Notes under the pieces: generated by a model
Seen by the model: the letters and a program-made list of their open reading frames with translations, nothing else
Database searches by the model: none
What the model was told of the DNA's origin: nothing
Assembly (NCBI GenBank): GCA_963847815.1
Contig: CAWKBF010000001.1
Span: forward strand, 101,184 to 165,183
DNA length: 64,000 nucleotides
Direction: 5' to 3'
DNA from: an uncultured Acidimicrobiia bacterium
GTDB lineage: Bacteria > Actinomycetota > Acidimicrobiia > IMCC26256 > JAENVU01
Shown here: positions 27,133-64,000 of the stretch, in pieces
Position numbering within the stretch: position 1 is the stretch's first letter
Layout: every line of letters starts with the position of its first letter
Position numbers and translations under genes: made by a program

Positions 27133-30070
<2,938 letters not shown>

Positions 30071-30099
30071 GAGGCGGCCTCGGCAGGGACGGGGAGCCA

Positions 30100-31759: not shown

Positions 31760-31798
<39 letters not shown>

Positions 31799-36348: not shown

Positions 36349-36389
36349 CAAGGTTCGGGACGGGTCTGTTCCAACTCTGACGGATGGCG

Positions 36390-36403
36390 TTACGGCTCCG
36401 TAA
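36390..36403 (+). promoter_or_regulatory. 14-bp palindrome TTACGG-CT-CCGTAA upstream of the Rieske gene (candidate operator)
   Basis: Perfect 6-bp inverted arms in the 154-nt gap before GTG 36503. A second inverted repeat, GCGACAC...GTGTCGC, lies about 40 nt downstream. RBS GAGGAGGA precedes the start. Confidence 0.25.
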
Positions 36404-36502
36404 ACGCTGCCTTCTGACGTTGCTTTCGGGCAACGCGACACCCGAGAGTGGGCTGAGTCGCGTGTCGCACGCGGCGGCGTTCCCACGAGGAGGACCCATA
36501 CC

Positions 36503-37603: not shown

Positions 37604-37741
37604 CAGCACGAACGCGCGCGTCTGTTCACGCGTCGGTCATGACGGGTGAACGGGAGGGTCACGTGGGCAACAGGTCCGCGTTACCCGAGGTTCTCTCCAC
37701 CCACACGGCGGGGCAACGCTCGCTTCCTACCTTGACGCTTG

Positions 37742-40640: not shown

Positions 40641-41423
40641 GTCCCCGCAGCGGTCGGGTCGCCGTGATCACCGGCGGCGGGCGCGGCCTCGGGCGGGGGA
40701 TCGCGATTGCCCTCGCGGATGCGGGCCACGACCTGGTGATCGGTTGGAACCGCGACGCGGTGTCGGCGGCCGAGACCGCCGACGCGGTCCGGTCGCGGGG
40801 GCGTGAGGTCGAGCTGGTCTTCGGAGACGTGGCCGAGGTCCAGACCGCGAAGGTGCTCGTGGAGGCCGCGGTCACGGGGCTCGGCGGGCTCGATGTGTGG
40901 GTGAACAACGCAGGTGTCTCGATGATCGCGCCGGTGCTCGAGACACCGGCGAGCGAGATGGAGCGCATGCTCTCGGTCAACGTCATCGGCACGCTGCACG
41001 GGATGCAGACCGCGGCGCTGACGATGCTCGAGCGCCGGAGTGGGGGTCGCGTCATCAACCTCGCGTCGGATGCAGGCCTCCAGGGGTTCCCGAACCTCGG
41101 TGGCTACGCCGCGACGAAGTTCGCGGTCGTCGCGCTGACCCAGACGGCCGCGCTCGAGCTGGCCCGCGACGGCATCACCGTCAACGCGGTGTGCCCCGGC
41201 ACCGCCGAGACCGCGATGAACCACGCCGAGTGGAAGGCGGAGCGGTCGATCTCCGGCCTGACCATTGACGACGTCCGCCAGAGCTACCTCGCGCAGATCC
41301 CGGCGGGCCGGTTCTGCACCCCCGAGGACGTCGGCGCCGCGGTCGCGTACCTGGCCGGCCCGGGCGCGGTCCTTCGTCACCGGGCAGTCCATCTGCGTCA
41401 ACGGCGGAACGGTCCTCCATTGA
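40637..41423 (+). pseudogene. SDR family oxidoreductase, one frameshift near the 3' end
   Basis: ATGA overlap with the upstream gene. VITGGGRGLGRG Rossmann motif and YAATKFAV catalytic motif. A +1 shift at about 41369 (GCG G TCC) restores the canonical C-terminus SFVTGQSICVNGGTVLH, with stop at 41421-41423. Confidence 0.75.
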
Positions 41424-41460
41424 CGACTCGCCAACGACACCACCTGGGAAGGGAGCACCC

Positions 41461-42093
41461 ATGCGCCAACCGATGATCGTCGATCGACCCGCATTGATCG
41501 TGGTCGACATGCAGAAGGGGGGCGGCCTTCCGCTCGACGAGGTCGGCATCCCCGTGATGCCCGGCTACGAGGAACAGGTGCCGCGCGCGGTCGCCATGGT
41601 GGAAGCCGCGCGCGCGGCCGGGATCCCGGTGATCTTCTTCCAGGAGGTCCACCGGCGCAGCCTGATCGACTTCGGTCGCGAGCTCGACGGCGTCGAGACC
41701 ATCCATGGGCTCGACGGCGACCGGGCGACCGAGCTCGACGACCGTCTGCTGCCGCAACCCGGTGACGACCACATCGTCAAGCGGCGCTACTCGGGCTTCT
41801 TCGGCACCGAGCTCGACATCCTCCTGAAGGGCCTGGGCGTCAGCACGTTGGTGCTGATCGGTGGCCTCACCGATGTGTGCGTCCACTACACGTTCGTCGA
41901 CGGCCATCAGCGGGACTTCTACATGCGTGTCGTCGAGGACTGCGTCCTCGGGTCGTCGCAACCCGCACACGACGCGTCACTCAACGCGATGGAGTATCTG
42001 CAGGCCGGCGCCCGTCGCACGACAGACGAGGTGCTCGAAGCGTTCTCCGCGCACGCTGAGCTGCTCGGCGCGCCGGTCGAGGTGCCGGCGTGA
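41461..42093 (+). CDS. isochorismatase-family cysteine hydrolase
   Basis: ALIVVDMQKG, KRRYSGFFGT, and catalytic Cys in GGLTDVCVHYT. RBS GGGAAGGGAG upstream. Confidence 0.85.
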   Translation: MRQPMIVDRPALIVVDMQKGGGLPLDEVGIPVMPGYEEQVPRAVAMVEAARAAGIPVIFFQEVHRRSLIDFGRELDGVETIHGLDGDRATELDDRLLPQPGDDHIVKRRYSGFFGTELDILLKGLGVSTLVLIGGLTDVCVHYTFVDGHQRDFYMRVVEDCVLGSSQPAHDASLNAMEYLQAGARRTTDEVLEAFSAHAELLGAPVEVPA

Positions 42094-43760
42094 TGACCGG
42101 TCGCACCGATCAACCCACGCCAGTCCAACCCCAACCAGGAGGTCCAGTGCCCACTGTGAGAACCCAACATTCGAAGGCCCGTCGACTCAGGATCTTCGCC
42201 CTGTTCGCGGTGCTCGCCATCGTTGCGGCGGCGTGTGGCGGCACCGACGACAACAGCTCGTCGTCCGGTGGGAGCTCGGGTGGCTCCTCGACGACGTTGC
42301 GCACCGCGTTCGTGACCGACATGCAGGTCCCGGACCCGGACATCTTCTACGAGACCGAAGGCAACCAGGTGGTGATGTCCACCTACGAAGGACTCGTCCG
42401 CTACAAGCAGGACCCGCCGTCCAACGAGATCGAAGGGCTGCTCGCGACGAGTTGGGAGAAGTCTCCCGACGGGCTCAAGTACACCTTCACCCTGCGCCCG
42501 AACGTGAAGTTCTTCGACGGCACCGACTTCAACTCGGAGGCGCTGAAGACGAGCTTCGAACGGCGTACCGCGGTGGACCAGGGTCCGGCGTACATGCTCG
42601 CCGAGGTGGCGTCGTACGAGACGCCGGATCCGCTCACGTTCGTGGTCAACCTGAAGCGGCCGGTGTCTGCGTTCATGGACTACATGGCCGCTCCGTACGG
42701 ACCGAAGGCGATCAGCCCGACCGCGTACGCGGCGCACAAGGGTGACGACCTCGGCCAGAAGTACCTGTCAACGCACAGCATCGGGACCGCGCCGTACATG
42801 ATCACGGACTTCGTGCTGGGTCAGAAGTACGTGCTCGGCACGAACCCGAACTACTGGGGTGACAAGCCGAAGCTGAAGACGATCAACATGGACATCGTTC
42901 CCGACCTGTCGACCCAGCAGCTCAAGCTCGAGGGTGGCGACCTGGACATCCTGCACAACCTGCCGGCGAGCACCACGAACTCGTTCAAGGGCAAGAGCGG
43001 GTTCCAGGTGATCGACATCGAGTCGCTGCAGATGCAGGTGCTCAAGGTCAACCCGAACAAGCCGCCGTTCAACGACAAGTCCTTGCGGGTCAAGATGCGA
43101 GCGGCGATCGACAAGAAGAAGATGACCCAGGAGATCTTCGGTGACCTCGGGAAGGTCTCGGAGTCCATGGTGCCGCTCGGGCAGCTGCCCGAGCTGCCGG
43201 GTGGGAAGGACGTGTGGGACTACGACCCGGCACCGCTGAAGGCGGCCGTCTCTTCGCTGCCGAGTGGATCGAAGTCGATCACGATCGCGTACTCCACCGG
43301 TCAGGTGAACGACCAGCGGACCGCCGAGTCGATCCAGCAGGTCCTCTCGGATGCGGGCTTCAGCGTGAAGGTCCTGTCGTTGCCGATCGCGCAGATCTTC
43401 GCCTTGCGGGACCAACCCCAGAGTGATGTGCCGAACCTGCTGGTGGAGACCGCGAACCCGGATGCGGCACAGCAGGACACCTACCAGCGGATCTTCTACA
43501 ACACCGGTGGGTTCCTCAACTACCTGAAGGGCGGTACGCCGGAGGCGGACGCGGAGATGGACCGTGGTCTCTACACGAATGACGACGCAGTCATCGCCGA
43601 CGCCTACAGCAAGGCCGCCGACCTCCTGTTCGCCGACGCGACGTTCATCACCACCGCCGACGTGAAGGGGACGTTCGTGGCCACCGACAAGCTGAGTGGG
43701 TGGACCAGCACCGCAGCTGCACCGGTGAGCCTCAACTTCCAGGCGGCAACGCTGAAGTAG
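42090..43760 (+). CDS. ABC transporter substrate-binding lipoprotein, family 5 (peptide/opine/nickel type)
   Basis: Lipobox AIVAAACGG. 556 aa with family-5 SBP features. The start overlaps the upstream stop (GTGATG). Confidence 0.85.
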   Translation: MMTGRTDQPTPVQPQPGGPVPTVRTQHSKARRLRIFALFAVLAIVAAACGGTDDNSSSSGGSSGGSSTTLRTAFVTDMQVPDPDIFYETEGNQVVMSTYEGLVRYKQDPPSNEIEGLLATSWEKSPDGLKYTFTLRPNVKFFDGTDFNSEALKTSFERRTAVDQGPAYMLAEVASYETPDPLTFVVNLKRPVSAFMDYMAAPYGPKAISPTAYAAHKGDDLGQKYLSTHSIGTAPYMITDFVLGQKYVLGTNPNYWGDKPKLKTINMDIVPDLSTQQLKLEGGDLDILHNLPASTTNSFKGKSGFQVIDIESLQMQVLKVNPNKPPFNDKSLRVKMRAAIDKKKMTQEIFGDLGKVSESMVPLGQLPELPGGKDVWDYDPAPLKAAVSSLPSGSKSITIAYSTGQVNDQRTAESIQQVLSDAGFSVKVLSLPIAQIFALRDQPQSDVPNLLVETANPDAAQQDTYQRIFYNTGGFLNYLKGGTPEADAEMDRGLYTNDDAVIADAYSKAADLLFADATFITTADVKGTFVATDKLSGWTSTAAAPVSLNFQAATLK

Positions 43761-43788
43761 CGCAAGGGTCTCTCGCCGGAGGCGAGCT

Positions 43789-43822
43789 GGTGGGGCTACC
43801 GGATGGAGTCGGTGGCCCCACC
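43789..43822 (+). terminator. hairpin after the binding-protein gene
   Basis: GGTGGGGC (43789-43796) pairs with GCCCCACC (43815-43822). It is preceded by a second small hairpin, CTCGCC-GGA-GGCGAG (43772-43786). No U-tract. Confidence 0.25.
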
Positions 43823-43923
43823 ACTCACGCGCCGGAGGGCGAAAGGTTCCGCGCAGACGCGGTTCATCGCGTTGTCGACGCACACGAAACCGAGTCGCAA
43901 CGGTCGACTCGTACGGTCAGACG

Positions 43924-44586
43924 ATGCTGACCGAACCTGAAGCCATGGTGGACACGTTCTCGCCGTCGTTCGAGCTCCCGGTCCCGGCCTACGAGGGCCG
44001 AGCGGTGTCGGTGGCGAAGGGGACCATGATCCGCATCACCGATGTGCAGGGTCACCAGATCGGCGACATGTTCGCGTTCGTGCGCGACAAGCCGTCGGAG
44101 TGGCTCAGTGCCGGGGCGTGCCGCACCGCGCACACGCGGTTGTTCCCGGAAGTCGGTACCGCATTCATGACGCAGTACCTGCGACCGATCCTGACGCTCG
44201 TCGCCGACACGTCGCCGGGTGTGCACGACATGCTCTACCCACCGTGCTCACCCGCCCAGTACAAGCTGGCGGGGGTTGTTGGCCACCACCCGAGCTGTCG
44301 CGAGAACTTCGAGATCGCCGCGGTCAGCGCGGGCATGCCGACCGACTTCGTGCCCGAGCCGGTGAACCTCTTCCAGAACACGCCACCCGATGCGGACGGC
44401 GTGCTCGTCATCGGCCCTGCTGCGTCCTCGGCCGGCGACTACGTGCTCCTGCGCGCCGAGATGGACATCGTCCTCGTGCTCACCGCGTGCAGCTACGACA
44501 TCGGCGACGCCAACGGCGACGAGTGCACCGACCTCCTGATCGAGCTCGACTCGAAACCCCTCGGCGTCGGCCAGCTCGACGACTAA
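43924..44586 (+). CDS. DUF1989 (urea-carboxylase-associated) family protein, third paralogue
   Basis: 220 aa. The patterns IRITDVQGHQIGDMFAF...DMLYPPCSP...LFQNTPPD resemble the DUF1989 proteins at 61.6-63.0 kb. Confidence 0.75.
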   Translation: MLTEPEAMVDTFSPSFELPVPAYEGRAVSVAKGTMIRITDVQGHQIGDMFAFVRDKPSEWLSAGACRTAHTRLFPEVGTAFMTQYLRPILTLVADTSPGVHDMLYPPCSPAQYKLAGVVGHHPSCRENFEIAAVSAGMPTDFVPEPVNLFQNTPPDADGVLVIGPAASSAGDYVLLRAEMDIVLVLTACSYDIGDANGDECTDLLIELDSKPLGVGQLDD

Positions 44587-50173: not shown

Positions 50174-51799
50174 CTAGCTCTTCGGCTTGAGCTTGGCGAG
50201 GTCCACCGTGAGGATCACCGGCCGCTTGTCCGCGAAGCCCGTGATCTTGTCCGACACGATGAAGTCGTCCGTCTCGTCCACGATGCCGATGTACGTGCCG
50301 CTCTTGACCAGCGCCTCGCCGGCCTCGGCGTACTTGTCCTTGACCGTCTGCTCGTCGGTCGCCGCCAGCCCCTCGTCCATCAGCGTGTCTGCTTCCGGGG
50401 TCCCGCCGTGCACCCAGTTGAGGAAGCCGTCGGTGCGGGAGTAGATGCGGATCCAGGTGTCCGGGTGGCCGGCGTCGGGGTTCAGCGAGCCGACGTACAG
50501 GTTGGGTTGCTCCGAGGCGGGCAGGTCGACGAACGTGAACGCAGTGGAGAGCGGCACGGGCTTCACGGTCGGCTTCATGCCCGCGGCGCGGAGGACGGTA
50601 CCGATGGCGTCGGCGACGTTCGAGTCCGTCACGTTCTCCGACGTGGTGCTGATCGTGACTGCCTTCTGGCTGTCCGGCAGCTTGGCCACCAGGTTCTTCA
50701 ACACCGACGGGTCGTACTCGGGGTCGTCCTTGGAGCGCTCGTCGTCAAGCATCCCGGCGGGGTAGTAGTTCGTCGAGATCGTGCCGCGGCCTCGGAAGAG
50801 GTCATCGAGGATCTTCTGCTTGTCGACCGCCTGGGCGAGAGCCTGACGCAGGGCCGGATCGGTGAACGGGCCACTCTTCGGGTTGACCTCGATCCACTCC
50901 TTGAAGACGACCGGGAAGGACTCGACCCGGAAGCCGCTCTTGTCCTCGAAGCGGTCGAGCGCGGTGGGGGGCTGGGAGTGGATGAAGTCCAGGTCGCCCC
51001 CCTCGAGGGCGAGCTGCTGGCTCGTGGCGTCGGGCATGATCTTCATCACGAGCTTCTCGTAGTACGGCTTCGGGCCCCACCACTTGTCGTTGCGCTGCAG
51101 CACGTACTGCTGGCCGATCGTCCACTCGGTGAGCTGATACGGACCGGTCCCGGCGGTGTGCGTCTTCAGCCACCCCTGGGCCATGTCGTCGCCCTTCGTG
51201 TGCTCGGCGATCGCGGTGGGGCTGACGACCTTCGGCCCGTAGGGGGCGGCGAGGTAGTGGAGGAACGCGGAGGTCGGCGTGGACAGCTTGACGACGAGGG
51301 TCTGCGGGTCCGGCGTCTCATAGCTCGCGACGGTCGCAAGCATGTATGCCGGCCCTTGGTCGATCGCGGTCCGACGTTCGAAGCTCTTCTGCACCGCGGT
51401 CGAATCCATGGGCGTGCCGTCGGCGAAGACGACGTTGTCGCGCAGGGTGAACGTGTAGGTGAGGCCGTCGTCGCTCACCGTCCACTTCGTTGCCAGTGCA
51501 GGCTCGATGTCGACCGTTGCGCCATTGACGTACTGGACCAGGCCTTCGTACGCACTGGTGGTCACCTCGAGACCCTCGCCCGAGTAGAAGATGTCGGGAT
51601 CCGGCTCCTGCGAGTCCGCGAAGAACGCAGTCCGCAGCGTCTTGCTCGCGCTCGTGTCACTCGCGGTCGAGTCCTCGTCCGTCGCACCACCGCACGCGGC
51701 GAGCACGAGTGCTGCAATGATCACCGCCAGCAGGACGGTCGCGGCGGGGCGAAGGCGGGAGGGACGGACGCGCGTGAGGTTGAGCGAAGTGTGCGGCAT
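50174..51799 (-). CDS. ABC transporter substrate-binding lipoprotein, family 5
   Basis: Start at ATG 51799 (MPHTSLNL...LVLAACGG lipobox). The upstream part of ORF 50174..52504 is antisense to the TetR gene. Paralogous to the SBP at 42090. Confidence 0.85.
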   Translation of the reverse strand: MPHTSLNLTRVRPSRLRPAATVLLAVIIAALVLAACGGATDEDSTASDTSASKTLRTAFFADSQEPDPDIFYSGEGLEVTTSAYEGLVQYVNGATVDIEPALATKWTVSDDGLTYTFTLRDNVVFADGTPMDSTAVQKSFERRTAIDQGPAYMLATVASYETPDPQTLVVKLSTPTSAFLHYLAAPYGPKVVSPTAIAEHTKGDDMAQGWLKTHTAGTGPYQLTEWTIGQQYVLQRNDKWWGPKPYYEKLVMKIMPDATSQQLALEGGDLDFIHSQPPTALDRFEDKSGFRVESFPVVFKEWIEVNPKSGPFTDPALRQALAQAVDKQKILDDLFRGRGTISTNYYPAGMLDDERSKDDPEYDPSVLKNLVAKLPDSQKAVTISTTSENVTDSNVADAIGTVLRAAGMKPTVKPVPLSTAFTFVDLPASEQPNLYVGSLNPDAGHPDTWIRIYSRTDGFLNWVHGGTPEADTLMDEGLAATDEQTVKDKYAEAGEALVKSGTYIGIVDETDDFIVSDKITGFADKRPVILTVDLAKLKPKS

Positions 51800-51805
51800 C
51801 GGCCC

Positions 51806-51835
51806 ATTCTCGGAGGGCTCAAGTTCTTTTGTCAA
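51806..51835 (-). promoter_or_regulatory. candidate sigma-70-type promoter for the SBP/TauD/ABC operon
   Basis: On the minus strand, TTGACA (51835-51830) is followed by an 18-nt spacer and GAGAAT (51811-51806), ending about 7 nt before ATG 51799. This implies a very short or absent leader. It sits in an AT-richer divergent region shared with the TetR gene. Confidence 0.3.
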
Positions 51836-51868
51836 TGACCTAAATTGTATCCAAGTCGTGACTGGAGG

Positions 51869-52477
51869 ATGACTGTGACGGAGCCGCGCGTACGACGCGC
51901 CAAGGGTGAAGAACGCATCGCGGAGGTGCTGCTGGCCGCCGAGGATCTGCTGACGCGACGCGGCGCAGAAGGGGTGAGCCTGCGCGACGTTGCGGATGCA
52001 GTTGGCATCAGCGTCGGCAACCTGCAGTACTACTTCCCGACGCGCGCGGCGCTGCTCGATGCGGTGTTCGAGCGCCACACGAAGATGTTCAGCGAAGACC
52101 TCGAAGCGCTCATCGAACCAGTTGACGAACCTCGTGATCGGTTGGAGCTGCTGATCGACTATTGGCTCGGTGTGCAGCACACCGAGTCGCAGAGCTTCTT
52201 CTGGTATTTGTGGGCGATCAGCGCCCATGACGATCGGGCGCGGGAGATCATGGAGCGGGTGTACACCGCACCGACGATGATGGCTGGGTGGCTCCGAGAG
52301 ATCCATCCCAAGCTCTCGAAGGGTGACGCGATGCGCCGCGCCGCGACGATCTCCAGCCTCATCGAAGGTTCCGGCCTCTTCGTCGGCTTCGGCCGCCAGC
52401 CCCGACGGGACTTGAAGAGCCTTCAGACCGAGATCCGCTTCACGGCCATGTCGGTCGTCGATCGCCTCGCCCATTGA
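51869..52477 (+). CDS. TetR/AcrR family transcriptional regulator
   Basis: HTH VSLRDVADAVGISVGNLQYYFPTRAALL. GGAGG at 51864-51868; the start is ATG 51869 or GTG 51875. Confidence 0.85.
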   Translation: MTVTEPRVRRAKGEERIAEVLLAAEDLLTRRGAEGVSLRDVADAVGISVGNLQYYFPTRAALLDAVFERHTKMFSEDLEALIEPVDEPRDRLELLIDYWLGVQHTESQSFFWYLWAISAHDDRAREIMERVYTAPTMMAGWLREIHPKLSKGDAMRRAATISSLIEGSGLFVGFGRQPRRDLKSLQTEIRFTAMSVVDRLAH

Positions 52478-52635
52478 CCGAAAAAGGGTGCTGACGAGCC
52501 CCACCGTTTGTCCGATTCCCGGTCACAGTGATTCACCATCGGACGAACCGGGGAGTGCGCAATGCAACGTCCACGATGGCCAAGCGGGATGCGTCGGTTG
52601 CGTTTCGGGAGTGCTTCGTACTGGAAGTGTGTTGG

Positions 52636-53499
52636 TCACGTTCGTGAGCTCGAGGAGCTCGGCGGTTGCCGGGGTCGGTCCTCCCAGGTGGGGTAGCCGA
52701 GCTCGCGGGTGAACGCAGGCCAGACGTCGGGGTCGTGGCCGGGAAGCATGCGGTAGCCGCGCTCGGCGGCGATCGCCTTCATCCGGCGGATCGGCTCGAT
52801 GCTCGCCTCGTTGGGAACGCCGATCGTCTCGCCGACCGCGAGCTCGTCGTCGATGTTCTCCTGGAGGTCCGCCGCGTCGGCTGCGAACACGTACCCGCCA
52901 CCACCGACCGAGTCGTCGAGCTCCACCATGAAGCTCTGATGGCCAGGTGTGTGGGCGGCGGTGAGGAGCGCGGTGACGCCGGGTGCAATCTCGGCATCGC
53001 CGCACGCGACCTGCCAGTCGATCGCAGGGTCGTCGATGTCGACGCGGTAGATCGCTGCCCGCTCCGGTTCCGGGTGCGATGCCGACAGCGCATAGTCGAG
53101 CTCCGCCTGCTGCGCGTGCACGGGCGTGGTGCCAGCGAACCACCGCACCCCGCCCGAGTGGTCGAGATGGAAGTGGCTGACCGCGACGGCGCTCACGATC
53201 GACGGGTCCAGCCCGACGAGGTCGAACGCGGCCTCGAGCGGGTCCCGCTCCGGATCGGGGAGCTCGGCCTCGTAGTCGGGGAGCGCGTCGTGGAAGCGAC
53301 GTTTCATCGGTGGGTCGCGGAAGAACGCGGGGTTGAACCCGGTGTCGAGGAGGACCCAGCCACCGTCGACCTCGCACAGGATGCCGGGAACCGGGCAACG
53401 GATGCGCAACGCGGGGTCCGCGCCGTATACCGACACGGCCTTCGGGAGGTTCTCCCAGCCGAAGGTCAACGGGACCACGCGTCGCACTCCATTTCGCAT
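52636..53499 (-). CDS. MBL-fold hydrolase, N-acyl homoserine lactonase-like family
   Basis: Start at the internal ATG (MRNGVRRVVPLTFGWE...). Zinc motif SHFHLDHSGG, with a later TPGH. Confidence 0.75.
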   Translation of the reverse strand: MRNGVRRVVPLTFGWENLPKAVSVYGADPALRIRCPVPGILCEVDGGWVLLDTGFNPAFFRDPPMKRRFHDALPDYEAELPDPERDPLEAAFDLVGLDPSIVSAVAVSHFHLDHSGGVRWFAGTTPVHAQQAELDYALSASHPEPERAAIYRVDIDDPAIDWQVACGDAEIAPGVTALLTAAHTPGHQSFMVELDDSVGGGGYVFAADAADLQENIDDELAVGETIGVPNEASIEPIRRMKAIAAERGYRMLPGHDPDVWPAFTRELGYPTWEDRPRQPPSSSSSRT

Positions 53500-53600: not shown

Positions 53601-54422
53601 ATGTCCACGATGAGCGGCATGGACCTTCCCGTTGCATCACCGTGGTTCGCGCGCCGGCGAGTCGATGACTCGATCACCCTCTTGTGGGAGCCGCACGTGC
53701 ACCGGATCCAGCAGTGCAACATCTGGCATCTCCGGGGCAGACGCAAGGACCTGATCATCGACACCGGGCTCGGGATCGCGTCGCTCGCGACCGCAGCCAA
53801 GGATCTGCTCGACCACTCGTTGCTCGCCGTGGCGACGCACTACCACTACGACCACACGGGCAGCTTGCACGAGTTCGAGAACCGGGCGATCCACCGGTCC
53901 GAGGCCGGTGAGGTCAGCACCACCGAGGGGATCGGCGGGACGCTGGTGGTCGCCGACATCCCGGAGGACATCGTCGCCGGGATGAGTGAATCCGGCTACG
54001 ACATGGACTGCGAGTACCTCGTCGACGCGATCCCGCACGCGGGATACGACATCACGAAGTTCTCGGTTCCCGGCGCCCCCCCGACGGTCGTCCTCGACGA
54101 AGGCGATGTCATCGACCTCGGTGACCGCGCGTTCGAGGTGCTGCACCTCCCTGGGCACTCACCCGGAAGCATCGGGCTCTGGGACGTGGACTCCGGCGTC
54201 CTGTTCTCCGGTGACGCGGTGTACGACGGGCCACTGCTCGACGATCTCCCGGACTCCGACATCGACGCGTACGTCGCCACCATGGAGATGCTCCACGACC
54301 TCCCGGTCGAGGTGGTGCACGCAGGTCACGATCCCAGCTTCGGAAGGGACCGGTTGCGGGAGCTGACTCAGGCTTACCTCGACCAGCGACGTCCTGTGGT
54401 GATCGAGGCTGCTGCCGGCTGA
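53601..54422 (+). CDS. MBL-fold metallo-hydrolase
   Basis: Variant motif THYHYDHTG plus LPGHSPGS. The start is uncertain (ATG 53601, 53610 or 53619). Confidence 0.75.
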   Translation: MSTMSGMDLPVASPWFARRRVDDSITLLWEPHVHRIQQCNIWHLRGRRKDLIIDTGLGIASLATAAKDLLDHSLLAVATHYHYDHTGSLHEFENRAIHRSEAGEVSTTEGIGGTLVVADIPEDIVAGMSESGYDMDCEYLVDAIPHAGYDITKFSVPGAPPTVVLDEGDVIDLGDRAFEVLHLPGHSPGSIGLWDVDSGVLFSGDAVYDGPLLDDLPDSDIDAYVATMEMLHDLPVEVVHAGHDPSFGRDRLRELTQAYLDQRRPVVIEAAAG

Positions 54423-54468: not shown

Positions 54469-55065
54469 TCACGGCTCGCGCCATCCGGTCGGGAGCTCGG
54501 TGCCGGGTTCGAGCGGAGCGGGGAGCAGCGCGAGCGCGGCCTCGTCACCGAACTCGATCCCGGGTTGCCACGCGGTGCCGTCCCAGTGTGAATATCGGGC
54601 CGCGATCGCGCCACCGGTCGCACGGGTGTCAACGACGACCGACGCGTGCTCGCCGACGCGCACCGCGATCCCGCCGACGGTCACGGCTGCCAGCACGGGG
54701 CCGTCGCCACCGGGAAGCTTCTCCCATCGTTCCGAGTACCTGATCGTACGACCGTCTTCGACGTACTCACCCTGCTCGATCATCGCATCGCCGTCGTAGG
54801 AGATCAGGCCGACGTCCCCGCCCTCGTCCTCGCCGTCGCTCTCGACGTACGAGTCGATCGCGTGTGCCCACGTCAGGTGCGGCTCCACCCACGACGTGGT
54901 GCCGGCGAAGGTCATGTCGCTCGCGAACCCACCGGGCCCGCGCACGTCGACATAGACGGAGCCGGCCTCCACCCACACCGTCGGGCCCGCCGTGACGTCG
55001 ACCTCACCGTCGACGATCGCCTCACTGCGGTTCCACGCGGCGATGAACTTCTCCGGCAGGCTCAT
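54469..55065 (-). CDS. hypothetical protein, translationally coupled to the Rieske gene
   Basis: ATG 55065 overlaps the restored Rieske stop (ATGA at 55062-55065). 198 aa, acidic, beta-rich looking (MSLPEKFIAAWNRSEAIVDGEVDV...). I recognise no family. Confidence 0.6.
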   Translation of the reverse strand: MSLPEKFIAAWNRSEAIVDGEVDVTAGPTVWVEAGSVYVDVRGPGGFASDMTFAGTTSWVEPHLTWAHAIDSYVESDGEDEGGDVGLISYDGDAMIEQGEYVEDGRTIRYSERWEKLPGGDGPVLAAVTVGGIAVRVGEHASVVVDTRATGGAIAARYSHWDGTAWQPGIEFGDEAALALLPAPLEPGTELPTGWREP

Positions 55066-56138
55066 CGGAGCATCCCGAGCACGTGCTCGTGGAACGCCGT
55101 GATCGGAGCTTCGTGCGCCTGGGCCAGCGGCCCGACTTCGAACGTCGGCGACGCCAGCCCCTGCTGGATCCGTTCGCAGGCGTCGATGTCCTCGTCGATG
55201 AAGCTGCGCGCCGCGCTCGAGCAGTGCTTCGGCGTCCGCCCCGGGTTCGGCTCGCATCCTCACCTCGATGATGCTCTCGGTCGGACCGATCGGGACCACC
55301 GCATAGGACATGAAGAACTCCGCGTTCGCGGCCATGAGGATGTTGGGAAAGATCAGGTGGGCGCCGACGCCGTGGATGTCGCGCTCGTCGAGGTGCTCGA
55401 TTGGCTTGGTGCCCTGCGCCAGGCGGGAGTGGGTGAGATCGGGTGAGCGCATCGGTTCGAAGCTGGCCCAGTTCCTGCCGAGCTGATGGTGCTCGAACTT
55501 GTGGTGATCGAGCTCCCCGAGGCTCTTCTGGTGCAGGTACCAGAGGTGGTACACGTCGATGTGGTTCTCGATCAGCAGCTTCCAGTTGCAATGCGCGACG
55601 AGATCGGCGGACGCGACGAGCGGAAGCAGACCGGGTCGGTGGCTGCCGATGTACCTCGGCAGCGCGTCGAGCGCGTCCGTCGAGTGATGCGGTCGGATCG
55701 GGATGCGCGAACACCATCCCTTCCCACACGCCGACGGCCGACGGCAGCAGGCCCCAGTTCTCGAGCCGGAGGTCGGGGAACTGGTCCTTGCGCTGCGGGA
55801 CGACGCGCAGCGCACCATCGAGCGCGTACCGCCAGTCGTGGTAGAAGCAGCGGATCCCGTCCGGGGAATGGCCGCACCCGTCGACCATCACCATCCCGCG
55901 GTGCCGGCACAGGTTCTGGAACGCCCGGAGCTGTCCGTCCTCGCCCCGCACGACGACGATTGGGACGCCGCCGACCGTGCCCGTGATGTAGTCGCCGACC
56001 TCGGTGAGCGAGTCGGTCGTGCCGATCAACGCCCACGAGCGCGGCGAAGAGGCTGCGCTGCTCTCGCTCGTACCAGCCCTGCTCGTCGTACGCGAGTCGA
56101 GGTAGCAGGAAGCGGCTCTCGTCGATCGTCGTCACCAT
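55062..56138 (-). pseudogene. Rieske [2Fe-2S] oxygenase alpha subunit, 3 frameshifts
   Basis: MVTTIDESRFLLPRLAYDEQGWYEREQRSLF, then +1 near 56041 into SWALIGTTDS...CRHRGM...CFYHDW...VFAHPDP, +1 near 55678 into DALDALPRYIG...CNWKLLIENHIDVYHLWYLH, and +1 near 55203 into FIDEDIDACERIQQGL...HEHVLGMLR stop. Paralogue of the gene at 36503..37603. Confidence 0.75.
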
Positions 56139-56265
56139 GAGGTCAAGAACACCCCAGGGAGATTTCAGCGTCGGGCCTCGACTGTTGCCGCACCATCACT
56201 GCAAGGTGACGGGTCTCTGGATCTCAAGGGTGTGCACCGTGTCGCAGCGACGGACGGCAGAATCT

Positions 56266-57976
56266 TCACGTCGGCAGCGAAGCGAGGTAGGAGCGCCAGC
56301 TGCCGAAGGAGGTGACATCGGGCGCGATGGTGGCGGCCCAGTCTTCACAGAGGAAGCCGGGGTGGGTCGTGCCGTCGTCGAGCTCGACCGTGCCGATGGT
56401 GAGCGGCGACGGCACTCCGGTCACGAACGCGCCGAAGCCGTCGATCGGCAGCTCCCAGAGCTCGGCCGCGATCGCGCTGCCACCGTCGGCAACCCGGACC
56501 AGGCCCGGTTTCGGAGGCGTGGTCGGCAGTGCATGGAGCCGGTACGCGGAAGCGGTGTGCACGTCGGCGACGAAGCAGCCACCGCGGTCGGTCAGCTGAT
56601 GGTTGAGCGGCTGGCCCCGGAGGTGCGCGCCGACGACCACGATCGTCGTGGTGCCGCTCCATGGCGGGCGCGGTGGATCGGGCTCGCCGAGGAATCGCGC
56701 GGCGGCCGCCGCGACGACCGGATCTGCAAACGCGGGTGCGAGGAACGTGATCCCGAACGGCACTCCGTCGCCGCGCCTGCCGGCGGGCACCGAGGACGCG
56801 CAGAGATCGAGGATGTTGCAGCCGTTCATGAAGCGGCCGAGCTTCGCGTTCTCGCCGATCGGATCCGCGGCGACTGCGGTGAGCGTCGGCGCGCTGCCGA
56901 TCGTCGGGATGGCGATCACGTCGACCATGTCCCACACGGGAGCGAACGCCGCGGCGTGAGCCCGAACCCGGTCGAGGTCACCGGCGAGCTGATGCGCGGG
57001 GAGGGTGCCCGCGGCAGCAATGAGAGAGGCGACCGTCGGATCCGCGCCATCCGGGTGCGTGGCCAGGAACTCGCCGACCGCGTCGTACCGCTCGGCGATC
57101 AGCGCGCTGCCGTAGAGCAGGTCGCCGACGTCCAGGTACGGACCGAGGTCGATCTCGACCGATGGGCCGAGCCTCGCGATCTCGATCACCGCCGCAGCCC
57201 ACGCCGCCGCGGCTTCGACGTCGAGGGTCGCGAGCTGGTCGGGATGGGGAAGGCCGACGCGCAGTGACGCGGGCGGGACGACCGCGGTCCCGCTCGGGGG
57301 AGTGCGGCTCCAGGGATCGGTCGGGTCCGGTCCCGCGGCGACGGCGAGCACGGTTGCGGCGTCGGCGACCGTCCGGGCGAAGACCGACACGCAGTCAAGG
57401 GAGCGACACGCCGGGACGACGCCGGCGTTGCTCACCAACCCGCGGCGTGGGCTTCAGGCCGACGATGCCGTTGAGCGCCGCGGGCACGCGACCGGAACCA
57501 GCGGTGTCCGTCCCGAGCGCGACATCCACTTCACCGAGCGCGACCGCAATCGCCGACCCCGAAGAGGACCCACCCGAGATCCGGTCGGGGACGATGGCGT
57601 TGCGACACGCGCCGTACGGCGACCGGGTCCCCACCAGACCGGTTGCGAACTGATCGAGGTTGGTCTTGCCGATCACCACCGCTCCGGCGTCGGTCAGGCG
57701 CGCGACGGCCGTCGCGGACTGGTCCGGCCGTCGATCCAAGGCGGGATGTGCCGCCGTGGTGGGGAGTCCGGCGACGTCGATGTTGTCCTTGATCGCGATC
57801 GTGATGCCCGCCAAGAGAAGGTCCTCGCCGGCGTCGAGTCGTTCCGCCACGTCGGTCGCGTCGGTCGCGACGTCCTCGGCCGGGCGAATGGTGATCCACG
57901 CTTCGGGGCGAACACTGCTTGCGACCGCGTCGACCGCCTGCGCCGCGGCGGCAACCGGATCGGGCTCGACCCTCAC
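56266..57976 (-). pseudogene. allophanate hydrolase (amidase signature family), one frameshift
   Basis: GTG 57976 overlaps the carboxylase stop (GTGA). Amidase signature GGSSSGSA. Junction ACG C CGC near 57445 joins ...GIVGLKPT to [22 protein letters not shown] (ORF 56266..57438). Confidence 0.8.
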
Positions 57977-60900
57977 GTGAGCGCCACGAGGGCCTGGCCC
58001 GGCCGAACCTCCTGGCCGGAACGGACGAGCACCGCCCGCACCTCACCGCTCGCCGGCGCGACCACCTGGGTCTCCATCTTCATCGCCTCGAGCACCACGA
58101 GCACGTCGCCCTCGGTGACCTGTTGGCCTTCCTCGACGACGACCTGCCACACCGAAGCGTGCAACGCGGACTCAACCAGCTTCGCTCCGTTGAGCTCCGT
58201 GTGGTCCATCTCCGGCTCGATCTCCGCGGCGACCCGATCGAACTCGCCGGACGCGGCCCACCGGTCCCGCTCGGCACCGAACGCGGCCTGCTGCTGATCG
58301 CGAAACGCGGTGATCGAAGGCTCGTTCTCGGCCAGGAACGCGAGATGGTCCGCGAGGCGCAACCGCGTTGGTGTGATGTCGAGCTCGGCGCGCCCGAGCG
58401 GGAGCTCGCGGCGCCAGTCGAGGAGCTCGTCCGCACTCACCTCGAAGAACCGGATCTGATCGAACGTGCGAAGCAACCACGGCTTCTCGAAGTCGCGCGT
58501 CGTGCGGTAGCGGTTCCACATCTGCACGGTGCGGCCCACGAACTGATAGCCACCCGGTCCCTCCATGCCGTACACGCAGAGGTACGCGCCACCGATGCCG
58601 ACCGCGTTCTCCGGCGTCCAGGTGCGCGCCGGGTTGTACTTCGTCGTCACCAGCCGGTGCCGGGGATCGAGTGGCGTCGCGACCGGAGCACCGAGGTAGA
58701 CGTCACCGAGCCCGAGGACGAGGTACGAAGCATCGAAGAGGATGCGGTGCACTGCGTCGACATCTCTGAGCCCGTTCACGCGTCGGATGAACTCGATGTT
58801 CCACGGGCACCACGGCGCGTCGTCGCGCACGGTGGACATGTAGCGGGCGATCGCTTCGCGGGTCGAGGGGTCGTCCCACGAGAGGGGAAGGTGCACGATG
58901 CGGCTCTCGACCTCGGCCTCGGCGGTGCCTGGGAGCTGAGACTCCGCGGCCTGCAACGCGTCGACGGCCGCCGCCACCGAGATCTGCGCCGGGTCGATGT
59001 GCACCTGCAGTGAGCGGATTCCCGGTGTCGCCTCGATCGCGCCGACGAGCCCGTGCTCTTCGATCCATTCCGCGAGCACGTGCACGCGGAACCGCAGCGC
59101 GAGGTCGAGGGTCATCGGCCCGTACTCGACCAACAGGTACTCGTCGCCGCTCCGGCGCCAACACACCTCGGGCCGGTCGCCATCGGCATCCCAGCGATCG
59201 AGCACGCCGCCGCTCGGGTCGCGCGACGGTACGAGCGTCGCCGAGTGCATGGCCGCGGTGCGCGTCGAGCCCCGCAGCTCGTCGGCGGCTTCGGTGGTGA
59301 TCGGGACGATCTTGACGGTGTCGCCGGGCCGGAGCTGACCCAGCTTCCAGCGTTCGGCCATCACGACCGTGGCCGGGCACACGAACCCGCCGAGGCTGGG
59401 GCCGTCGGGACCAAGGAGGATCGGCATGTCGCCGGTGAGGTCCACCGTGCCGACCGCGTACGCGGTGTCGTGGATGTTCGACGGGTGCAGGCCCGCGTCG
59501 CCGCCGTCGGTTCGTGCCCACCCGGGCGCGGGACCGATCAGCCGCACGCCGGTGCGCGCCGAGTTGTGGTGCACCTGGTATTCGGCGTCGAACAGGGCGG
59601 TCAGACCGTCAGGTGTGAGGAACTCCGGCGCGCCATGGGGGCCTTCCAGGACGCCGAGCTGCCACGCGGTGTCGATCGACGGCTGCTCGGCTTCGGGCAG
59701 TGCGCCGACGACGCTCGTCTCGTCCGGCTCGGTGCCGACGGTGAGCACGTCACCCGGCGCGAGCGCGCGACCGCCGTGGCCACCGAACTGACCGAGTGTG
59801 AACGTGGACCGGCTGCCCAGCACCTCGGGGACATCGATGCCACCCCGCACGAGGAGGTACGCGCGCAGTCCGGGTGGGCCGATCGCACCGATCTTCAGCG
59901 TGGCGCCTTCGGGAACGGTCACCGCCTCCCACATCGGGAACGGCTCGCCGTCGAGATCTGCGACGGCCGGCGCACCCGCGAGGCATGCAACGACGGGCGC
60001 GCGGAACCTCAAGGTGGGACCGGTGGCGGTGAGCTCGAGTCCCGCAGCGTTCTCGGGGTTGCCGAGCATCTGGTTGCCGAGCCGGAACGAGAGGTCGTCC
60101 ATCGGACCGCACGGCGGCACCCCGACCGGCCAGAGCCCGATGCGCCCGGGGTAGTCCTGCACGGTGGTGAGCATCCCGCCCGAGAGCACCTCGAACGTGC
60201 GGCCGGTCGGGCGGATGGATGCGAGCGCACCGGTCCACACGTCGCCGGCCCGGAACCCGGGGTCGAGTGCGATGCCGCGCAGCAGGTCGAGGTTCGTGGT
60301 GATGCCGTCCACGCGCATCGCGTCGAGCGCGGCGCTGAGCCGCGCGGCCGCCTCCGCACGATCGGCGCCGTGCACGATGACCTTGGCGAGCATCGGGTCG
60401 TAGTGCGGAGTGACGTCCGTGCCGGTCTCGATCCAGGTGTCGACCCGCACGCCGTCGGGCAGCGAGACGTTGGTGATCAGCCCGGCGTTCGGCCGGTGAT
60501 CGGCGCCCGCGTCCTCGGCGTAGACGCGCGCTTCCATCGCGTGACCCTCTGGTGTCAACGTCGGCGCGACACCGTCGAGCACGTGGGCGTCACCCGCGGC
60601 GAGCCGCACCATCCACTCGACCAGATCGACGCCTGTGACCTCCTCGGTCACCGGATGCTCGACCTGCAGTCTCGCGTTGACCTCGAGGAATGCGAGCACG
60701 TTCGCGTCGACGTCGACCAGCATCTCGACAGTGCCGGCCGACCGGTACGACACCGACTCTCCCAGTGCCCGGGCCGCGGCGTGGAGCTGGGTGCGGAGCT
60801 CGCTGGACAGTCCGGGCGCGGGTGCCTCCTCGACCACCTTCTGGTTCCGCCGCTGCAACGAGCAGTCCCGGTCGCCGAGCAGCACGACACCGCCCCGACC

Positions 60901-61545
60901 ATCGCCGAAGATCTGCACCTCGACGTGACGGGCGCGGGTCAGATAGCGCTCGATGAACAGCCCGCCGTTGCCGAACGCGGCCATCGCCTGGCGCTGTGCA
61001 CTGTCGAACGCGTCGCGCAGCGCGGCCTCGTCGGCGCACACGCGCATCCCGATCCCGCCCCCGCCGCCCGTCGCCTTGAGGATCACCGGATACCCGACGG
61101 CGGCCGCGGCTGCGAAGGCCGCATCCGCGGAGTCGAGCAGCCCCGAGCCCGGTAGCAATGGAACGCCGGCGGCCTCGGCCAGCTCCCGGGCGGTGTGCTT
61201 GATGCCGAACGCGTCGAGCTGCGCCGGAGTCGGGCCGATGAACGCGAGCCCCGCGGCCTCGACGCTCATGGCGAAGTCCGCCCGCTCCGACAGGAAGCCG
61301 TAGCCGGGATGGATCGCCTGCGCACCCGTCGCCGCGGCCGCGGCCAGGATCAGGTCGGCGCGCAGGTAGCTCTCGGTCGCGGGTGCCGGCCCCAGCCGTA
61401 CCGCCTCGTCGGCCGCGCGCACGTGGAGTGCGTCGGCATCCGGATCGGAGTACACCGCGATCGCGCGCACGTCGAGGTCGTGCAGCGTGCGGATGATCCG
61501 GCACGCGATCTCACCGCGGTTGGCGACGAGGACGGCGTCGAACAC
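57973..61545 (-). CDS. uca: urea carboxylase family enzyme (possibly guanidine carboxylase)
   Basis: Intact at 1190 aa. N-terminal biotin carboxylase ([17 protein letters not shown]...), a central KipA/KipI-like carboxyltransferase region, and a C-terminal biotinyl-lysine motif [11 protein letters not shown]. Confidence 0.9.
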
Positions 61546-61578
61546 GTCAGGCGGACTCGGTGCGCGGGGAGAACGCCA

Positions 61579-62190
61579 TCACGATCCGCTGACGACGATG
61601 CGGACCGGCGTGGGGTCGAAGCCGTTGCAGGGGTTGTTGATCTGCGGGCAGTTGCTGACGAGCACGAGCGTGTCCATCTCCGCGATGCACCGGACCACGA
61701 GTCCCGGCGCAGAGATCCCGTCGACGATGCCGAGCGTCCCGTCCGGTTCGACCGGCACGTTCATGTACCAGTTGATGTTGCTCACGATGTCGCGCTTCGA
61801 GAGCCCCCAGTGCGAGCCCTCGAGCAGGAAGTTCTCGACGCACGCGTGCTGGTGCTTCGTGTGGAAGCCGTACCGCAGGGTGTTCGACTCTTGGCTGCAC
61901 GCGCCGCCGATCGTGTCGTGACGCCCACAGGTGTCCTCGACCACCCGCAGCATCGGCCGGCCCTCGTTCGACATCAGCACCGAGCCGGTCGTGAGGAAGA
62001 TGTTGCGCTGCGCGGCGATGGTCGTGTGAGCGCAGTAGCGCTCTGCGGTGTCGTGCGGGTTGTAGAGCAGGCAGTCGACGGCCTGGTTGCCGCCGAGGTC
62101 GATGATCGCGATCTCGCCACCCGCGGGGACGACGCCGGACCACGGTGCGCGTGCGCCGACCTCGACGTCGGAGATGGTGATGGAGCTCAT
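61579..62190 (-). CDS. DUF1989 urea-carboxylase-associated protein (CgdB-like)
   Basis: ATG 62190 overlaps the upstream stop (ATGA). MSSITISDVEVGARAPWSGVV...CLLYNPHD...NCPQINNPCNGF. The longer listed ORF 61579..62709 is out of frame at its 5' end. Confidence 0.8.
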   Translation of the reverse strand: MSSITISDVEVGARAPWSGVVPAGGEIAIIDLGGNQAVDCLLYNPHDTAERYCAHTTIAAQRNIFLTTGSVLMSNEGRPMLRVVEDTCGRHDTIGGACSQESNTLRYGFHTKHQHACVENFLLEGSHWGLSKRDIVSNINWYMNVPVEPDGTLGIVDGISAPGLVVRCIAEMDTLVLVSNCPQINNPCNGFDPTPVRIVVSGS

Positions 62191-63044
62191 GAGCGACCCC
62201 CCAGCCAGTCCTGGTTGTTCAGGGAGGCCCGTGCAGTCTCCGGCGTCGTCGGCTCGGCGAGATCGGCGTCTGCTGCCGGCAACCATGCGGTGATGCGCAA
62301 CGCCGTGCACGGGTAGTCGGGGCGATCGTCGAGTGAGTGCGGCACGTTCGCGAGGGCCACGTGGACATCGAGCTCCGCGCGCAGGGTCACGTGCGCCCCT
62401 GCGGCTGCTGGCGCGGCTTCGAGCACCAATGCACCGTCCTCGGCGACCCGCGCGCCCTTGAAGAAGGCGATGCTCGGCCCGACGTCGCGTCGTTCGAGCC
62501 CGGCTTTCAGCGCCGCCACGATGAGTCGGTCCCGCGCGTTCGGGCAGGGACCCTGGACCTCGCCGTCGCCGTACTTCTCCACGTGGGTCGCGCGGTTCGG
62601 TGCGCCGCAGAGCGCATCGTGATGGCCCGAGGTGTCCGCCGTGATCGTCATCAGCGCACGGCCCATGTCCGAGAGCAGCCGGCTTCCGGTGGTGGGGTAC
62701 GCCTGCCACTGGACCTTCACGGTGTCGGCGAGGTTCAGGCGCTCGGCCGGCTGGAGCGCGTTGTGCACGATGACGTGCGCGCAGGCGTCGCCTTCGAGGT
62801 CCGTGAGCCGGAGCAGTGCGCCACGCGGGAGGAGGTGCGCGGCGTACTCGCCGGGTTCGATCGTCTCCTCCCAGATCGCCGTACCGGCTGCGTCGGCGGG
62901 GAGGTCGAGCGCTTCGGTCGCCGGGATGGTGGGCATGCCCCGGACCCGAGTGCCGGCTTGCGAGCGGGCATGGTCGCGCGCGCCGAAGGTGGTCGCGGTG
63001 TCGTTCGTCGTCTCCACCCGGCGATTATCGAGCCGTCGACCCAC
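62187..63044 (-). CDS. DUF1989 urea-carboxylase-associated protein (CgdA-like)
   Basis: 285-aa ORF (GTG 63044; GTG 63017 also possible). LLRLTDLEGDACAHVIVHN...DALCGAPN... First gene of the carboxylase operon. Confidence 0.8.
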   Translation of the reverse strand: MGRRLDNRRVETTNDTATTFGARDHARSQAGTRVRGMPTIPATEALDLPADAAGTAIWEETIEPGEYAAHLLPRGALLRLTDLEGDACAHVIVHNALQPAERLNLADTVKVQWQAYPTTGSRLLSDMGRALMTITADTSGHHDALCGAPNRATHVEKYGDGEVQGPCPNARDRLIVAALKAGLERRDVGPSIAFFKGARVAEDGALVLEAAPAAAGAHVTLRAELDVHVALANVPHSLDDRPDYPCTALRITAWLPAADADLAEPTTPETARASLNNQDWLGGRS

Positions 63045-63414
63045 CCCGCGGGGATCGGGCGTGTGAACGCCGGATGATTCACAGATGACGGCACCGAGTC
63101 ATTCAGCCTGGGGTCAGGAAGATGGACTCACCCGACGCGGCTTCGTCGGCGCGGAGGCGCTCCGCGAGTCTGGAGCCCGCGGGTCGTCGTGCTTCCAATC
63201 CGGGCCAGCTCGGAGCGCCTGGGCACGGTGGTGCTCGCCAACTCCTGCCCGGTGCAGATCACCGGGACGGACATCGAGCCCTCGAGCTCCTGGTCAGCCG
63301 CCTCGCTGCCATCCTCTCCGCGTCTCTCCGGAGCCCGGGCGCTCGACGTTGAATCAGAGGCACGTGGGTTAGGTGGTGCGTCAGTCGGGAAGCCTCCCGG
63401 GATGACGCGGACGC

Positions 63415-64000
63415 GTGCTGCCCGAGCTACCGGTCCTGGATCTCTCCGACTACCAGCACGGCGGCGGGGGACGAGGGATCGACGCGGCCCGCCGGCTCGG
63501 CCCGGACGGGGTGATCGAGCATCTCCGCGCGTCCGGGCTCCGAGGCCGGGGTGGCGCCGGGTTCCCGACCGGGGAGAAGTGGGCTGCGGTGCGCGCGTAC
63601 GCGTCCGATGCACTGGCGGCCACTGTCGTCGTGAACGCAGCCGAAGGCGAGCCGGGATCGTTCAAGGACCGCGCGCTGCTCCGCGCCAACCCGTTCGCAG
63701 TGATCGAGGGCGCGTTGATCGCCGCGGGTGCCATCGGCGCCCGCCGCGTGATCGTCGCGTCGAAGGAATCGTTCACGACCGAGATGGAGATCATTCGCGC
63801 GAGCATCGCCGCCGTGATCGAAGCGGGCTGGAGCGAGGGGATCGAGCTGTTCGCGTTCGCCGGACCGGGCGAGTACCTCTACGGCGAGGAGACGGCGCTG
63901 CTCGAGGCGATCGACGGACGTCCCCCCTTCCCCCGCGTGGCGCCGCCGTACCGACACGGGGTCGAGGAGGTCACTGACAACCGGCGCAGTGAGCCATCGC
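63415..64000 (+). CDS. NuoF-like NADH-binding flavoprotein subunit (3' end outside window)
   Basis: This frame is absent from the ORF track because it runs off the window. My translation from GTG 63415 gives VLPELPVLDLSDYQHGG...GLRGRGGAGFPTGEKW...VVNAAEGEPGSFKDRALL...YGEETALLEAIDG, the hallmark motifs of the 51-kDa/NuoF family. Confidence 0.75.
   Translation, partial: MLPELPVLDLSDYQHGGGGRGIDAARRLGPDGVIEHLRASGLRGRGGAGFPTGEKWAAVRAYASDALAATVVVNAAEGEPGSFKDRALLRANPFAVIEGALIAAGAIGARRVIVASKESFTTEMEIIRASIAAVIEAGWSEGIELFAFAGPGEYLYGEETALLEAIDGRPPFPRVAPPYRHGVEEVTDNRRSEPS

Follow-up and report, generated by a model that had tools for sequence, protein, structure and literature searches.

A guanidine carboxylase operon with a Rieske oxygenase gene and a divergent MgdL homologue, a candidate methylguanidine demethylation module in an uncultured Acidimicrobiia bacterium

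Guanidine metabolism has been worked out only recently, and its methylguanidine branch, which relies on the enzymes MgdH and MgdL, dates from 2025 and from one group of halophiles. In Vreelandella boliviensis, the guanidine carboxylase operon holds two extra genes: mgdH, encoding a 2-oxoglutarate (2OG) dioxygenase that hydroxylates methylguanidine, and mgdL, encoding an N-(hydroxymethyl)guanidine lyase of β-barrel structure, with catalytic residues D49 and R51 (mutation of which abolishes activity) and binding residues D112 and E126, that is inactive on hydroxylated dimethylguanidine (Sinn et al. 2025, PMC12508155). The same study, which makes no mention of Rieske enzymes or Actinobacteria, calls the origin of methylguanidine elusive (PMC12508155). 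Here we describe a minus-strand operon at positions 54469-63044 of a 64,000-nt stretch of contig CAWKBF010000001.1 (hereafter, the window; G+C content 66-71% throughout), which stems from an uncultured, high-G+C Acidimicrobiia bacterium and in which the genes of a guanidine carboxylase pathway are followed by one for a Rieske oxygenase and one for a short MgdL homologue. We consider it slightly better than an even bet that this pair forms a two-gene demethylation front end to the guanidine carboxylase operon, with the Rieske enzyme in the role of MgdH and the MgdL homologue as the lyase.

The locus resembles that of V. boliviensis in combining a guanidine carboxylase, the CgdAB pair and an allophanate hydrolase (AH) with an oxygenase gene that directly precedes a small β-barrel gene. 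It differs in several respects: the oxygenase is of the Rieske/Ring_hydroxyl_A type, whereas that of V. boliviensis is a 2OG-Fe(II) dioxygenase; the pair follows the AH gene instead of lying between gca and atzF; the window has neither a Gd-I nor a Gd-II riboswitch; the putative lyase belongs to a short subfamily of ~195 aa that is ~22% identical to MgdL; and the host there is a halophilic gammaproteobacterium (PMC12508155). For the window, the names on homologues and a mycothiol-type domain loosely agree with an actinobacterial, probably Acidimicrobiia-like host. With the canonical, riboswitch-controlled guanidine operons (PMC12186494, PMC11410670), the window shares CgdA, CgdB, a carboxylase with the Asp signature and AH, in an order that is also found in 66 of the 80 closest species-level genome loci. 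Unlike these operons, which carry an NMT1/TauT-type ABC importer and ykkC/mini-ykkC riboswitches, the window has an importer of the SBP5 oligopeptide type and no riboswitch, and its relatives carry a divergent TetR or AsnC regulator. Canonical operons of this kind were reportedly described by Schneider et al. in 2020 and by Sinn et al. in 2021. Literature searches pairing Rieske enzymes with methylguanidine, or with creatinine and guanidine, returned nothing relevant, and the locus combines enzymes in a way that is new for this pathway, itself first described in 2025.

Gene order and the guanidine carboxylase core

The open reading frame (ORF) listing, Pfam matches and direct reading of the sequence bear out the minus-strand gene order, the ATGA and GTGA overlaps and the 127-nt gap given in a preliminary description of this DNA. 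The operon begins with two DUF1989 genes, the first of the UAAP1 type (62187-63044; PF09347, E 2e-50) and the second of the UAAP2 type (61579-62190; PF09347, E 1e-63), which are predicted to encode carboxyguanidine deiminase subunits and are joined by an ATGA overlap at 62190-62187. After a 33-nt spacer follows the gene of an intact, 1190-aa member of the urea-carboxylase family (57973-61545; TIGR02712 plus domain matches), the putative guanidine carboxylase, which overlaps the AH gene through a GTGA at 57976-57973. The AH gene (56266-57976) is read in two frames, 57395-57976 and 56266-57438, with Amidase and AH_C domains. Beyond the 127-nt spacer (56139-56265) lies the gene of an alpha-only Rieske non-haem-iron oxygenase (55062-56138), a proposed (methyl)guanidine hydroxylase whose Rieske and Ring_hydroxyl_A domains fall on separate frames, and this gene shares an ATGA overlap at 55065-55062 with a 198-aa ORF (54469-55065). 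The latter matches the Pfam family HRI1 (PF16815) and is proposed to encode an MgdL-like β-barrel protein acting as an N-(hydroxyalkyl)guanidine lyase.

The carboxylase can be assigned by two signature positions: guanidine carboxylases are distinguished from urea carboxylases by an Asp at the position of K. lactis residue 1330 and by a further, conserved Asp at 1584 (Palatinszky et al., PMC11410670). In the window protein, Asp702 stands opposite Asn1330 of the K. lactis urea carboxylase (chain index 737 of 3VA7), while Asp948, part of a GLGD motif, aligns with the only Asp in that stretch, which our numbering places at 1585, one off the published 1584. Both signature sites are occupied by Asp in 84 of 84 related loci. 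The protein matches TIGR02712 over its full length, at 1768 bits versus a cutoff of 1304, with all six domains present. As for the DUF1989 genes, the first scores 268 bits against TIGR03425 (cutoff 206) and its product is 72% identical to the orthologue in the related locus L083, and the second scores 324 bits against TIGR03424 (cutoff 285), members of its own 90% cluster being named 'urea carboxylase-associated protein'; the CgdA and CgdB subunit labels are provisional. The AH protein, taken over its two frames, is 70-77% identical to intact 581-aa orthologues of loci L082 and L083, which pass TIGR02713. Given the Asp702/Asp948 signature, the TIGR03425/TIGR03424 pair and the downstream AH gene, the assignment of the four core genes to a guanidine carboxylase pathway, and not to one for urea, is supported by sequence, in agreement with the substrate preferred in the preliminary description.

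The MgdL-like and Rieske genes

The last gene of the operon, initially listed as hypothetical, encodes a homologue of the N-(hydroxymethyl)guanidine lyase MgdL. A profile of 28 MgdL sequences, taken from the alignment of PMC12508155, matched the window protein with an E-value of 1.4e-9 and all members of its family (33 of 33), and comparison of the MgdL-like family with MgdL by hhalign returned a probability of 99.2% (E 2e-19 over 141 columns). Pairwise BLASTP against MgdL (A0A265DXW6) is marginal when taken alone (E 0.008), so that the homology rests on the profile methods. Four residues, D40, R42, D84 and E97, are invariant in the 33 sequences and align with D49, R51, D112 and E126 of MgdL, with D40 and R42 forming part of a YVDVRGP motif opposite HADIRLP of MgdL. 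This homology and the conserved active-site residues predict the protein to have lyase activity. Together with the position of the gene directly after the Rieske gene, they also lend support to the earlier proposal that an oxygenase frees guanidine from a larger guanidino compound to be mineralised locally.

Within the MgdL superfamily, the window protein is, by these comparisons, a divergent member that belongs to a distinct short subfamily (~195 aa). This subfamily comprises 37 clusters at 90% identity among 5.8 billion proteins and collapses to essentially one at 50%. The published MgdL set is delimited by at least 30% identity to MgdL and a length of 220-250 aa, compared to 22% and 198 aa for the window protein. 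A library-wide profile search recovered 637 representative relatives of the superfamily; reciprocal matches to canonical MgdL were obtained in two of the 80 genome loci, L052 and L053, and the homologue of locus L087 scores in between the short MgdL-like and the MgdL families. The AlphaFold2 model of the window protein is confident (pLDDT 93.7) and all-β, with 13 strands and almost no helix, and yielded only weak, lipocalin-like matches in the PDB. Its match to PF16815 reaches 40 bits versus a gathering cutoff of 27, while V. boliviensis MgdL has no Pfam match and bears the UniProt label DUF3445. As a separate observation, the PF16815 match ties the bacterial MgdL superfamily to yeast HRI1 and its Pfam family. 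HRI1 has no known enzymatic role, and the window protein differs from it in being single-domain, ~195 aa long and bacterial.

The Rieske protein, once corrected for frame, retains both metal-binding motifs, the cluster motif CRH-x17-CFYH (residues 77-100) and the iron motif DVYHLWYLH (residue 194). Among solved structures and curated families, it comes closest to CntA, GbcA and Stc2 (6Y8J, E 3e-30; GbcA model, E 2e-33; 3VCA), which have the same Rieske and 2-His motifs. These enzymes hydroxylate the carbon beside a cationic nitrogen, in carnitine (CntA), glycine betaine (GbcA) and stachydrine (Stc2), and the outcome is either N-demethylation (GbcA, Stc2) or C-N cleavage (CntA). Carbon hydroxylation of this type is the chemistry needed to arrive at an N-(hydroxyalkyl)guanidine. 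Unlike them, the window protein scores far under any equivalog cutoff (at best 116 bits versus 670, for GbcA, with the match confined mainly to the N-terminal 230 residues), and no counterpart of the reductase genes of CntB and GbcB was found beside its gene. It belongs to a clade of 529 or more proteins that carry the label 'choline monooxygenase', the named ones deriving from Acidimicrobiia and from Actinobacteria metagenome-assembled genomes (MAGs); in these genomes, this label and that of 'HRI1' (PF16815) are probably misleading. Having a Rieske and a Ring_hydroxyl_A domain, the protein is unrelated in fold to MgdH, which is of the 2OG-Fe(II)/IPNS type. Judging from its domains, the Rieske enzyme would be a functional analogue of MgdH at most, not a member of its family, and a non-homologous hydroxylase thus appears to have replaced MgdH. 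The nearby TauD genes, too, are of a family distinct from that of MgdH, given its IPNS-type annotation.

To place the gene pair in context, we compared the window with the 80 closest species-level ordinary guanidine carboxylase loci and with related contigs (of the L081-L095 series, and the P0052 locus); nine short contigs from a metagenome scan are informative on immediate neighbours, not for statistics. The Rieske gene stands directly upstream of the MgdL-like gene in the window and in L081, L082, L083, L085, L087, L088, L093 and the P0052 locus, and a guanidine carboxylase gene lies at most 10 kb away in six of the eight loci with a readable neighbourhood, in three different arrangements. 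The window's order CgdA-CgdB-carboxylase-AH-Rieske-MgdL-like is found in L082 and L083, and in L085 with an AsnC gene inserted between AH and Rieske. L087 reads Rieske-MgdL-like-creatininase-GS-like-transporter, with the carboxylase ~9 kb downstream, and the short contigs L088 and L093 each show the Rieske gene followed by the MgdL-like gene. Since the order recurs in L082, L083 and L085, the arrangement is not due to chance. All of the 80 ordinary loci lack the Rieske/short-MgdL pair. Near the window operon, nothing corresponds to the TetR, AsnC, M20 and amidohydrolase genes that the related loci carry. Inclusion of the Rieske gene in the guanidine gene set, as first proposed from the window alone, is upheld by the recurrence of the Rieske/lyase pair and its link to a guanidine carboxylase in several lineages. 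This indicates the lyase half of the methylguanidine branch to be far more widespread, and also more divergent, than has been reported, and suggests that actinobacterial soil lineages couple it to an entirely different oxygenase chemistry.

Proposed pathway and alternative explanations

In the pathway that we propose, the Rieske monooxygenase would hydroxylate methylguanidine, or an N-alkylguanidine closely resembling it, at the N-methyl carbon, resulting in the stable hemiaminal N-(hydroxymethyl)guanidine. The MgdL-like protein would split this hemiaminal into guanidine and formaldehyde through Asp/Arg acid-base catalysis, whereupon guanidine would be carboxylated in an ATP- and biotin-dependent step and deiminated, and hydrolysis of the resulting allophanate would yield ammonia and CO2. 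As MgdL is narrowly specific and its pocket is conserved in full, the most likely substrate of the Rieske enzyme is methylguanidine, and the locus offers a directly testable candidate for a Rieske methylguanidine monooxygenase.

Several observations weigh against this demethylation pathway. In L086, a guanidine operon is divergent from a Rieske-M20-MBL-amidohydrolase operon (MBL, metallo-β-lactamase-fold), i.e. a Rieske gene lies beside guanidine genes without any MgdL-like gene, and L084 has an MgdL-like gene with neither a Rieske nor a carboxylase gene within 10 kb. Links of the MgdL-like gene to creatininase-family, GS-like, M20 and MBL genes are no less consistent, so that the real substrate may be a larger compound. 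Pairwise identity between the MgdL-like protein and MgdL is only 22% (over 144 residues), the former being ~50 residues shorter. No reductase or ferredoxin partner was seen among the ORFs scanned over most of the window, or among the called genes of L082-L087, and no guanidine riboswitch was detected with Rfam at gathering score over the whole window or at E ≤ 10 over positions 62900-64000, riboswitch control being frequent but not universal in guanidine carboxylase pathways. Both AH and Rieske are frame-broken in the deposited sequence.

The same logic could hold for a larger, N-substituted guanidino substrate supplied via the neighbouring genes, a possibility that we entertain tentatively and put well below even. 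Creatine, produced from creatinine by the creatininase-family enzyme, could undergo N-demethylation or N-CH2 cleavage, or else a guanidino acid might be subject to CntA-style C-N cleavage; in either case, the lyase would cleave the matching N-(1-hydroxyalkyl)guanidine. Such a substrate would be in line with the presence of creatininase-family and GS-like genes beside the MgdL-like gene in the window island (35-63 kb), L084, L087, L089, L090, L095 and the P0052 locus (L091 having the creatininase only), with the activity of the nearest Rieske relatives GbcA, Stc2 and CntA on N-methylated or N-alkylated, amino-acid-like cations, and with an SBP5-type ABC importer being always close by. However, no change is seen at the four pocket positions of MgdL, a lyase of narrow specificity, which argues for the same small hemiaminal, and V. 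boliviensis MgdL does not act on hydroxylated dimethylguanidine. The creatininase family, moreover, is broad, and a family match does not fix the substrate.

A second alternative concerns the frame breaks. The +1 lesion previously noted in AH at 57445 is real in the deposited sequence, where alignment to two orthologues identifies one inserted base at ~57446; that it might block the last step, as then suggested, is doubtful, as at least nine further +1 frameshifts occur nearby and the lesion is probably an assembly artefact. The Rieske gene, whose interruption had escaped the preliminary description, is not an intact ORF either: it consists of four frame segments that match orthologues of 356-376 aa collinearly in tblastn, and DNA alignment with three orthologues reveals three single inserted bases, at ~56044, ~55678 and ~55215. 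In total, at least ten frame breaks occur at 35-58 kb (35445-57446), all of them +1, and the nine that were aligned as DNA are single inserted bases in a G+C-rich, non-homopolymer context. Apart from the three breaks in Rieske and the one in AH, they affect an ABC ATPase (two, ~46310 and ~45354), a permease (one, ~48180), the GS-like ligase (two, ~39043 and ~39145) and the second TauD gene (one, 35911).

If the AH and Rieske frameshifts were real, both the last step and the front end would be dead. We regard such decay of the cluster as unlikely, even though four breaks fall into the 2.8 kb of AH and Rieske versus none in the 5 kb of carboxylase and CgdAB; at the observed rate, we estimate that zero breaks in 5 kb would be expected ~10% of the time. 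Natural decay would mix insertions and deletions, whereas all ten breaks are +1 and nine are single-base insertions. Unrelated genes are struck as well (ABC ATPase, permease, GS-like ligase, TauD), the codon-position G+C bias carries on past every break with every catalytic and metal-binding motif kept, and genes split in the same manner occur in sister long contigs (CgdA of L082, the carboxylase of L085). As uniform +1 insertions are spread over unrelated genes, the frame breaks are probably due to assembly error rather than gene decay, and we infer the four operon breaks to be sequence errors. Frame breaks of this assembly should hence not be taken for pseudogenes. Of the split genes in the sister contigs, CgdA of L082 is cut to 140 aa (2478-2900) and the carboxylase of L085 is in pieces of 458 and 714 aa (4236-7753); both are long metagenome contigs of the same ENA assembly series, which would fit a common mode of error in sequencing or assembly. 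The window itself is part of a 1.5-Mb contig.

The spacer between AH and Rieske varies in length among relatives, from 17 nt in L082 and 80 nt in L083 to the 127 nt of the window. A sigma-70 consensus scan, which is weak for high-G+C actinobacteria, revealed no promoter-like or terminator-like site in the gap (56139-56265) or the operon, and the gap folds no better than shuffled sequences (z = -0.66). We infer co-transcription across the gap. That the Rieske and HRI1-like genes stem from an unrelated pathway, such as betaine/choline-type demethylation, and are adjacent to the guanidine genes by accident would suit the database name 'choline monooxygenase' of the Rieske clade, the lack of the pair in the 80 ordinary loci and the room that 127 nt leave for a separate promoter, but is very improbable, given that the link to guanidine carboxylase survives three rearrangements between proteins only 57-75% identical, that the gene paired with the Rieske gene encodes a homologue of a guanidine-specific lyase, with the guanidine-binding residues kept, and that the gap lacks promoter-like or terminator-like signals.

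Neighbouring genes and the wider island

Next to the MgdL-like gene, the window encodes two MBL proteins (53616-54404, plus strand; 52681-53499, minus strand; Pfam Lactamase_B), which are 68-85% identical to those encoded after the MgdL-like gene in L081, L082 and L083; L084 has an MBL pair in the equivalent position. In the Methylotenera MAG locus L053 (624-3359), the gene of a canonical MgdL has upstream of it an MBL gene and a gene for a membrane di-iron oxygenase of the fatty-acid-desaturase type.

Further away, Pfam matches and tblastn comparison to L083 and L087 genes define a companion gene set on the plus strand (35445-44562). It comprises a TauD gene (frameshifted), a second Rieske gene (41% identity to the operon Rieske), a creatininase-family hydrolase gene (37748-38503), a GS-like ligase gene (two frameshifts), and genes for a C26 peptidase of the gamma-glutamyl type, an isochorismatase-like hydrolase, an SBP5 protein and a third DUF1989 protein. 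A frameshift in the creatininase-family gene, hinted at by the frame plot, was rejected, as tblastn gives one unbroken frame. The combination of GS-like, C26 and Rieske genes recalls aniline dioxygenase clusters, and isochorismatase-fold enzymes include the N-carbamoylsarcosine, biuret and guanylurea hydrolases.

The whole 35-63 kb island might even constitute one pathway, although we deem this rather unlikely: a cyclic N-methyl guanidino compound (e.g. creatinine) would be imported, opened by hydrolases of the creatininase-family, MBL or isochorismatase type, trimmed to methylguanidine by TauD and Rieske enzymes, demethylated and mineralised. Were it true, the island would provide both a first enzymatic route to methylguanidine and a first guanidine N-demethylase of the Rieske type, and MgdL-type lyases would pair, depending on the lineage, with a 2OG dioxygenase, a Rieske enzyme or possibly a membrane di-iron enzyme (L053). 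The arrangements in the window and in L053 are a hint that the oxygenase partner of MgdL lyases varies in family, and that the MBL proteins may handle a formaldehyde adduct. The conserved creatininase-family, GS-like, M20 and MBL neighbours are a lead on the natural origin of methylated guanidines, stated in the field as an open question.

Several further features of the window were recorded. The third DUF1989 gene (43924-44562, plus strand) is a stand-alone paralogue that also occurs in L082 (14953-15606) and L083 (12462-13124); among curated families, it best matches the DUF1989 domain of trimethylamine N-oxide demethylase, and it is conserved beside an ABC transporter in related loci. A 776-aa ORF on the minus strand (50174-52504) is an over-extension of the true SBP5 gene at 50177-51799. 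Divergent from the operon of SBP5, TauD and permease genes lies a TetR regulator gene (51875-52471, plus strand); the TetR, SBP5 and TauD proteins are 71-86% and the permease 91% identical to those of L081. Upstream of the guanidine operon, within 63045-64000, a 370-nt non-coding stretch without Rfam match is followed by a divergent gene that carries a Nuo51/Complex1_51K FMN-binding domain and runs off the window, at a position where related loci have a TetR gene. At 25391-33535 on the minus strand, a large two-component signalling cluster encodes HAMP repeats, which include a 279-bp tandem duplication at 32637-33212, GAF, HisKA and HATPase domains, several REC and Hpt domains and a REC-GGDEF protein; it contains many overlapping frames, probably reflecting further frameshifts.

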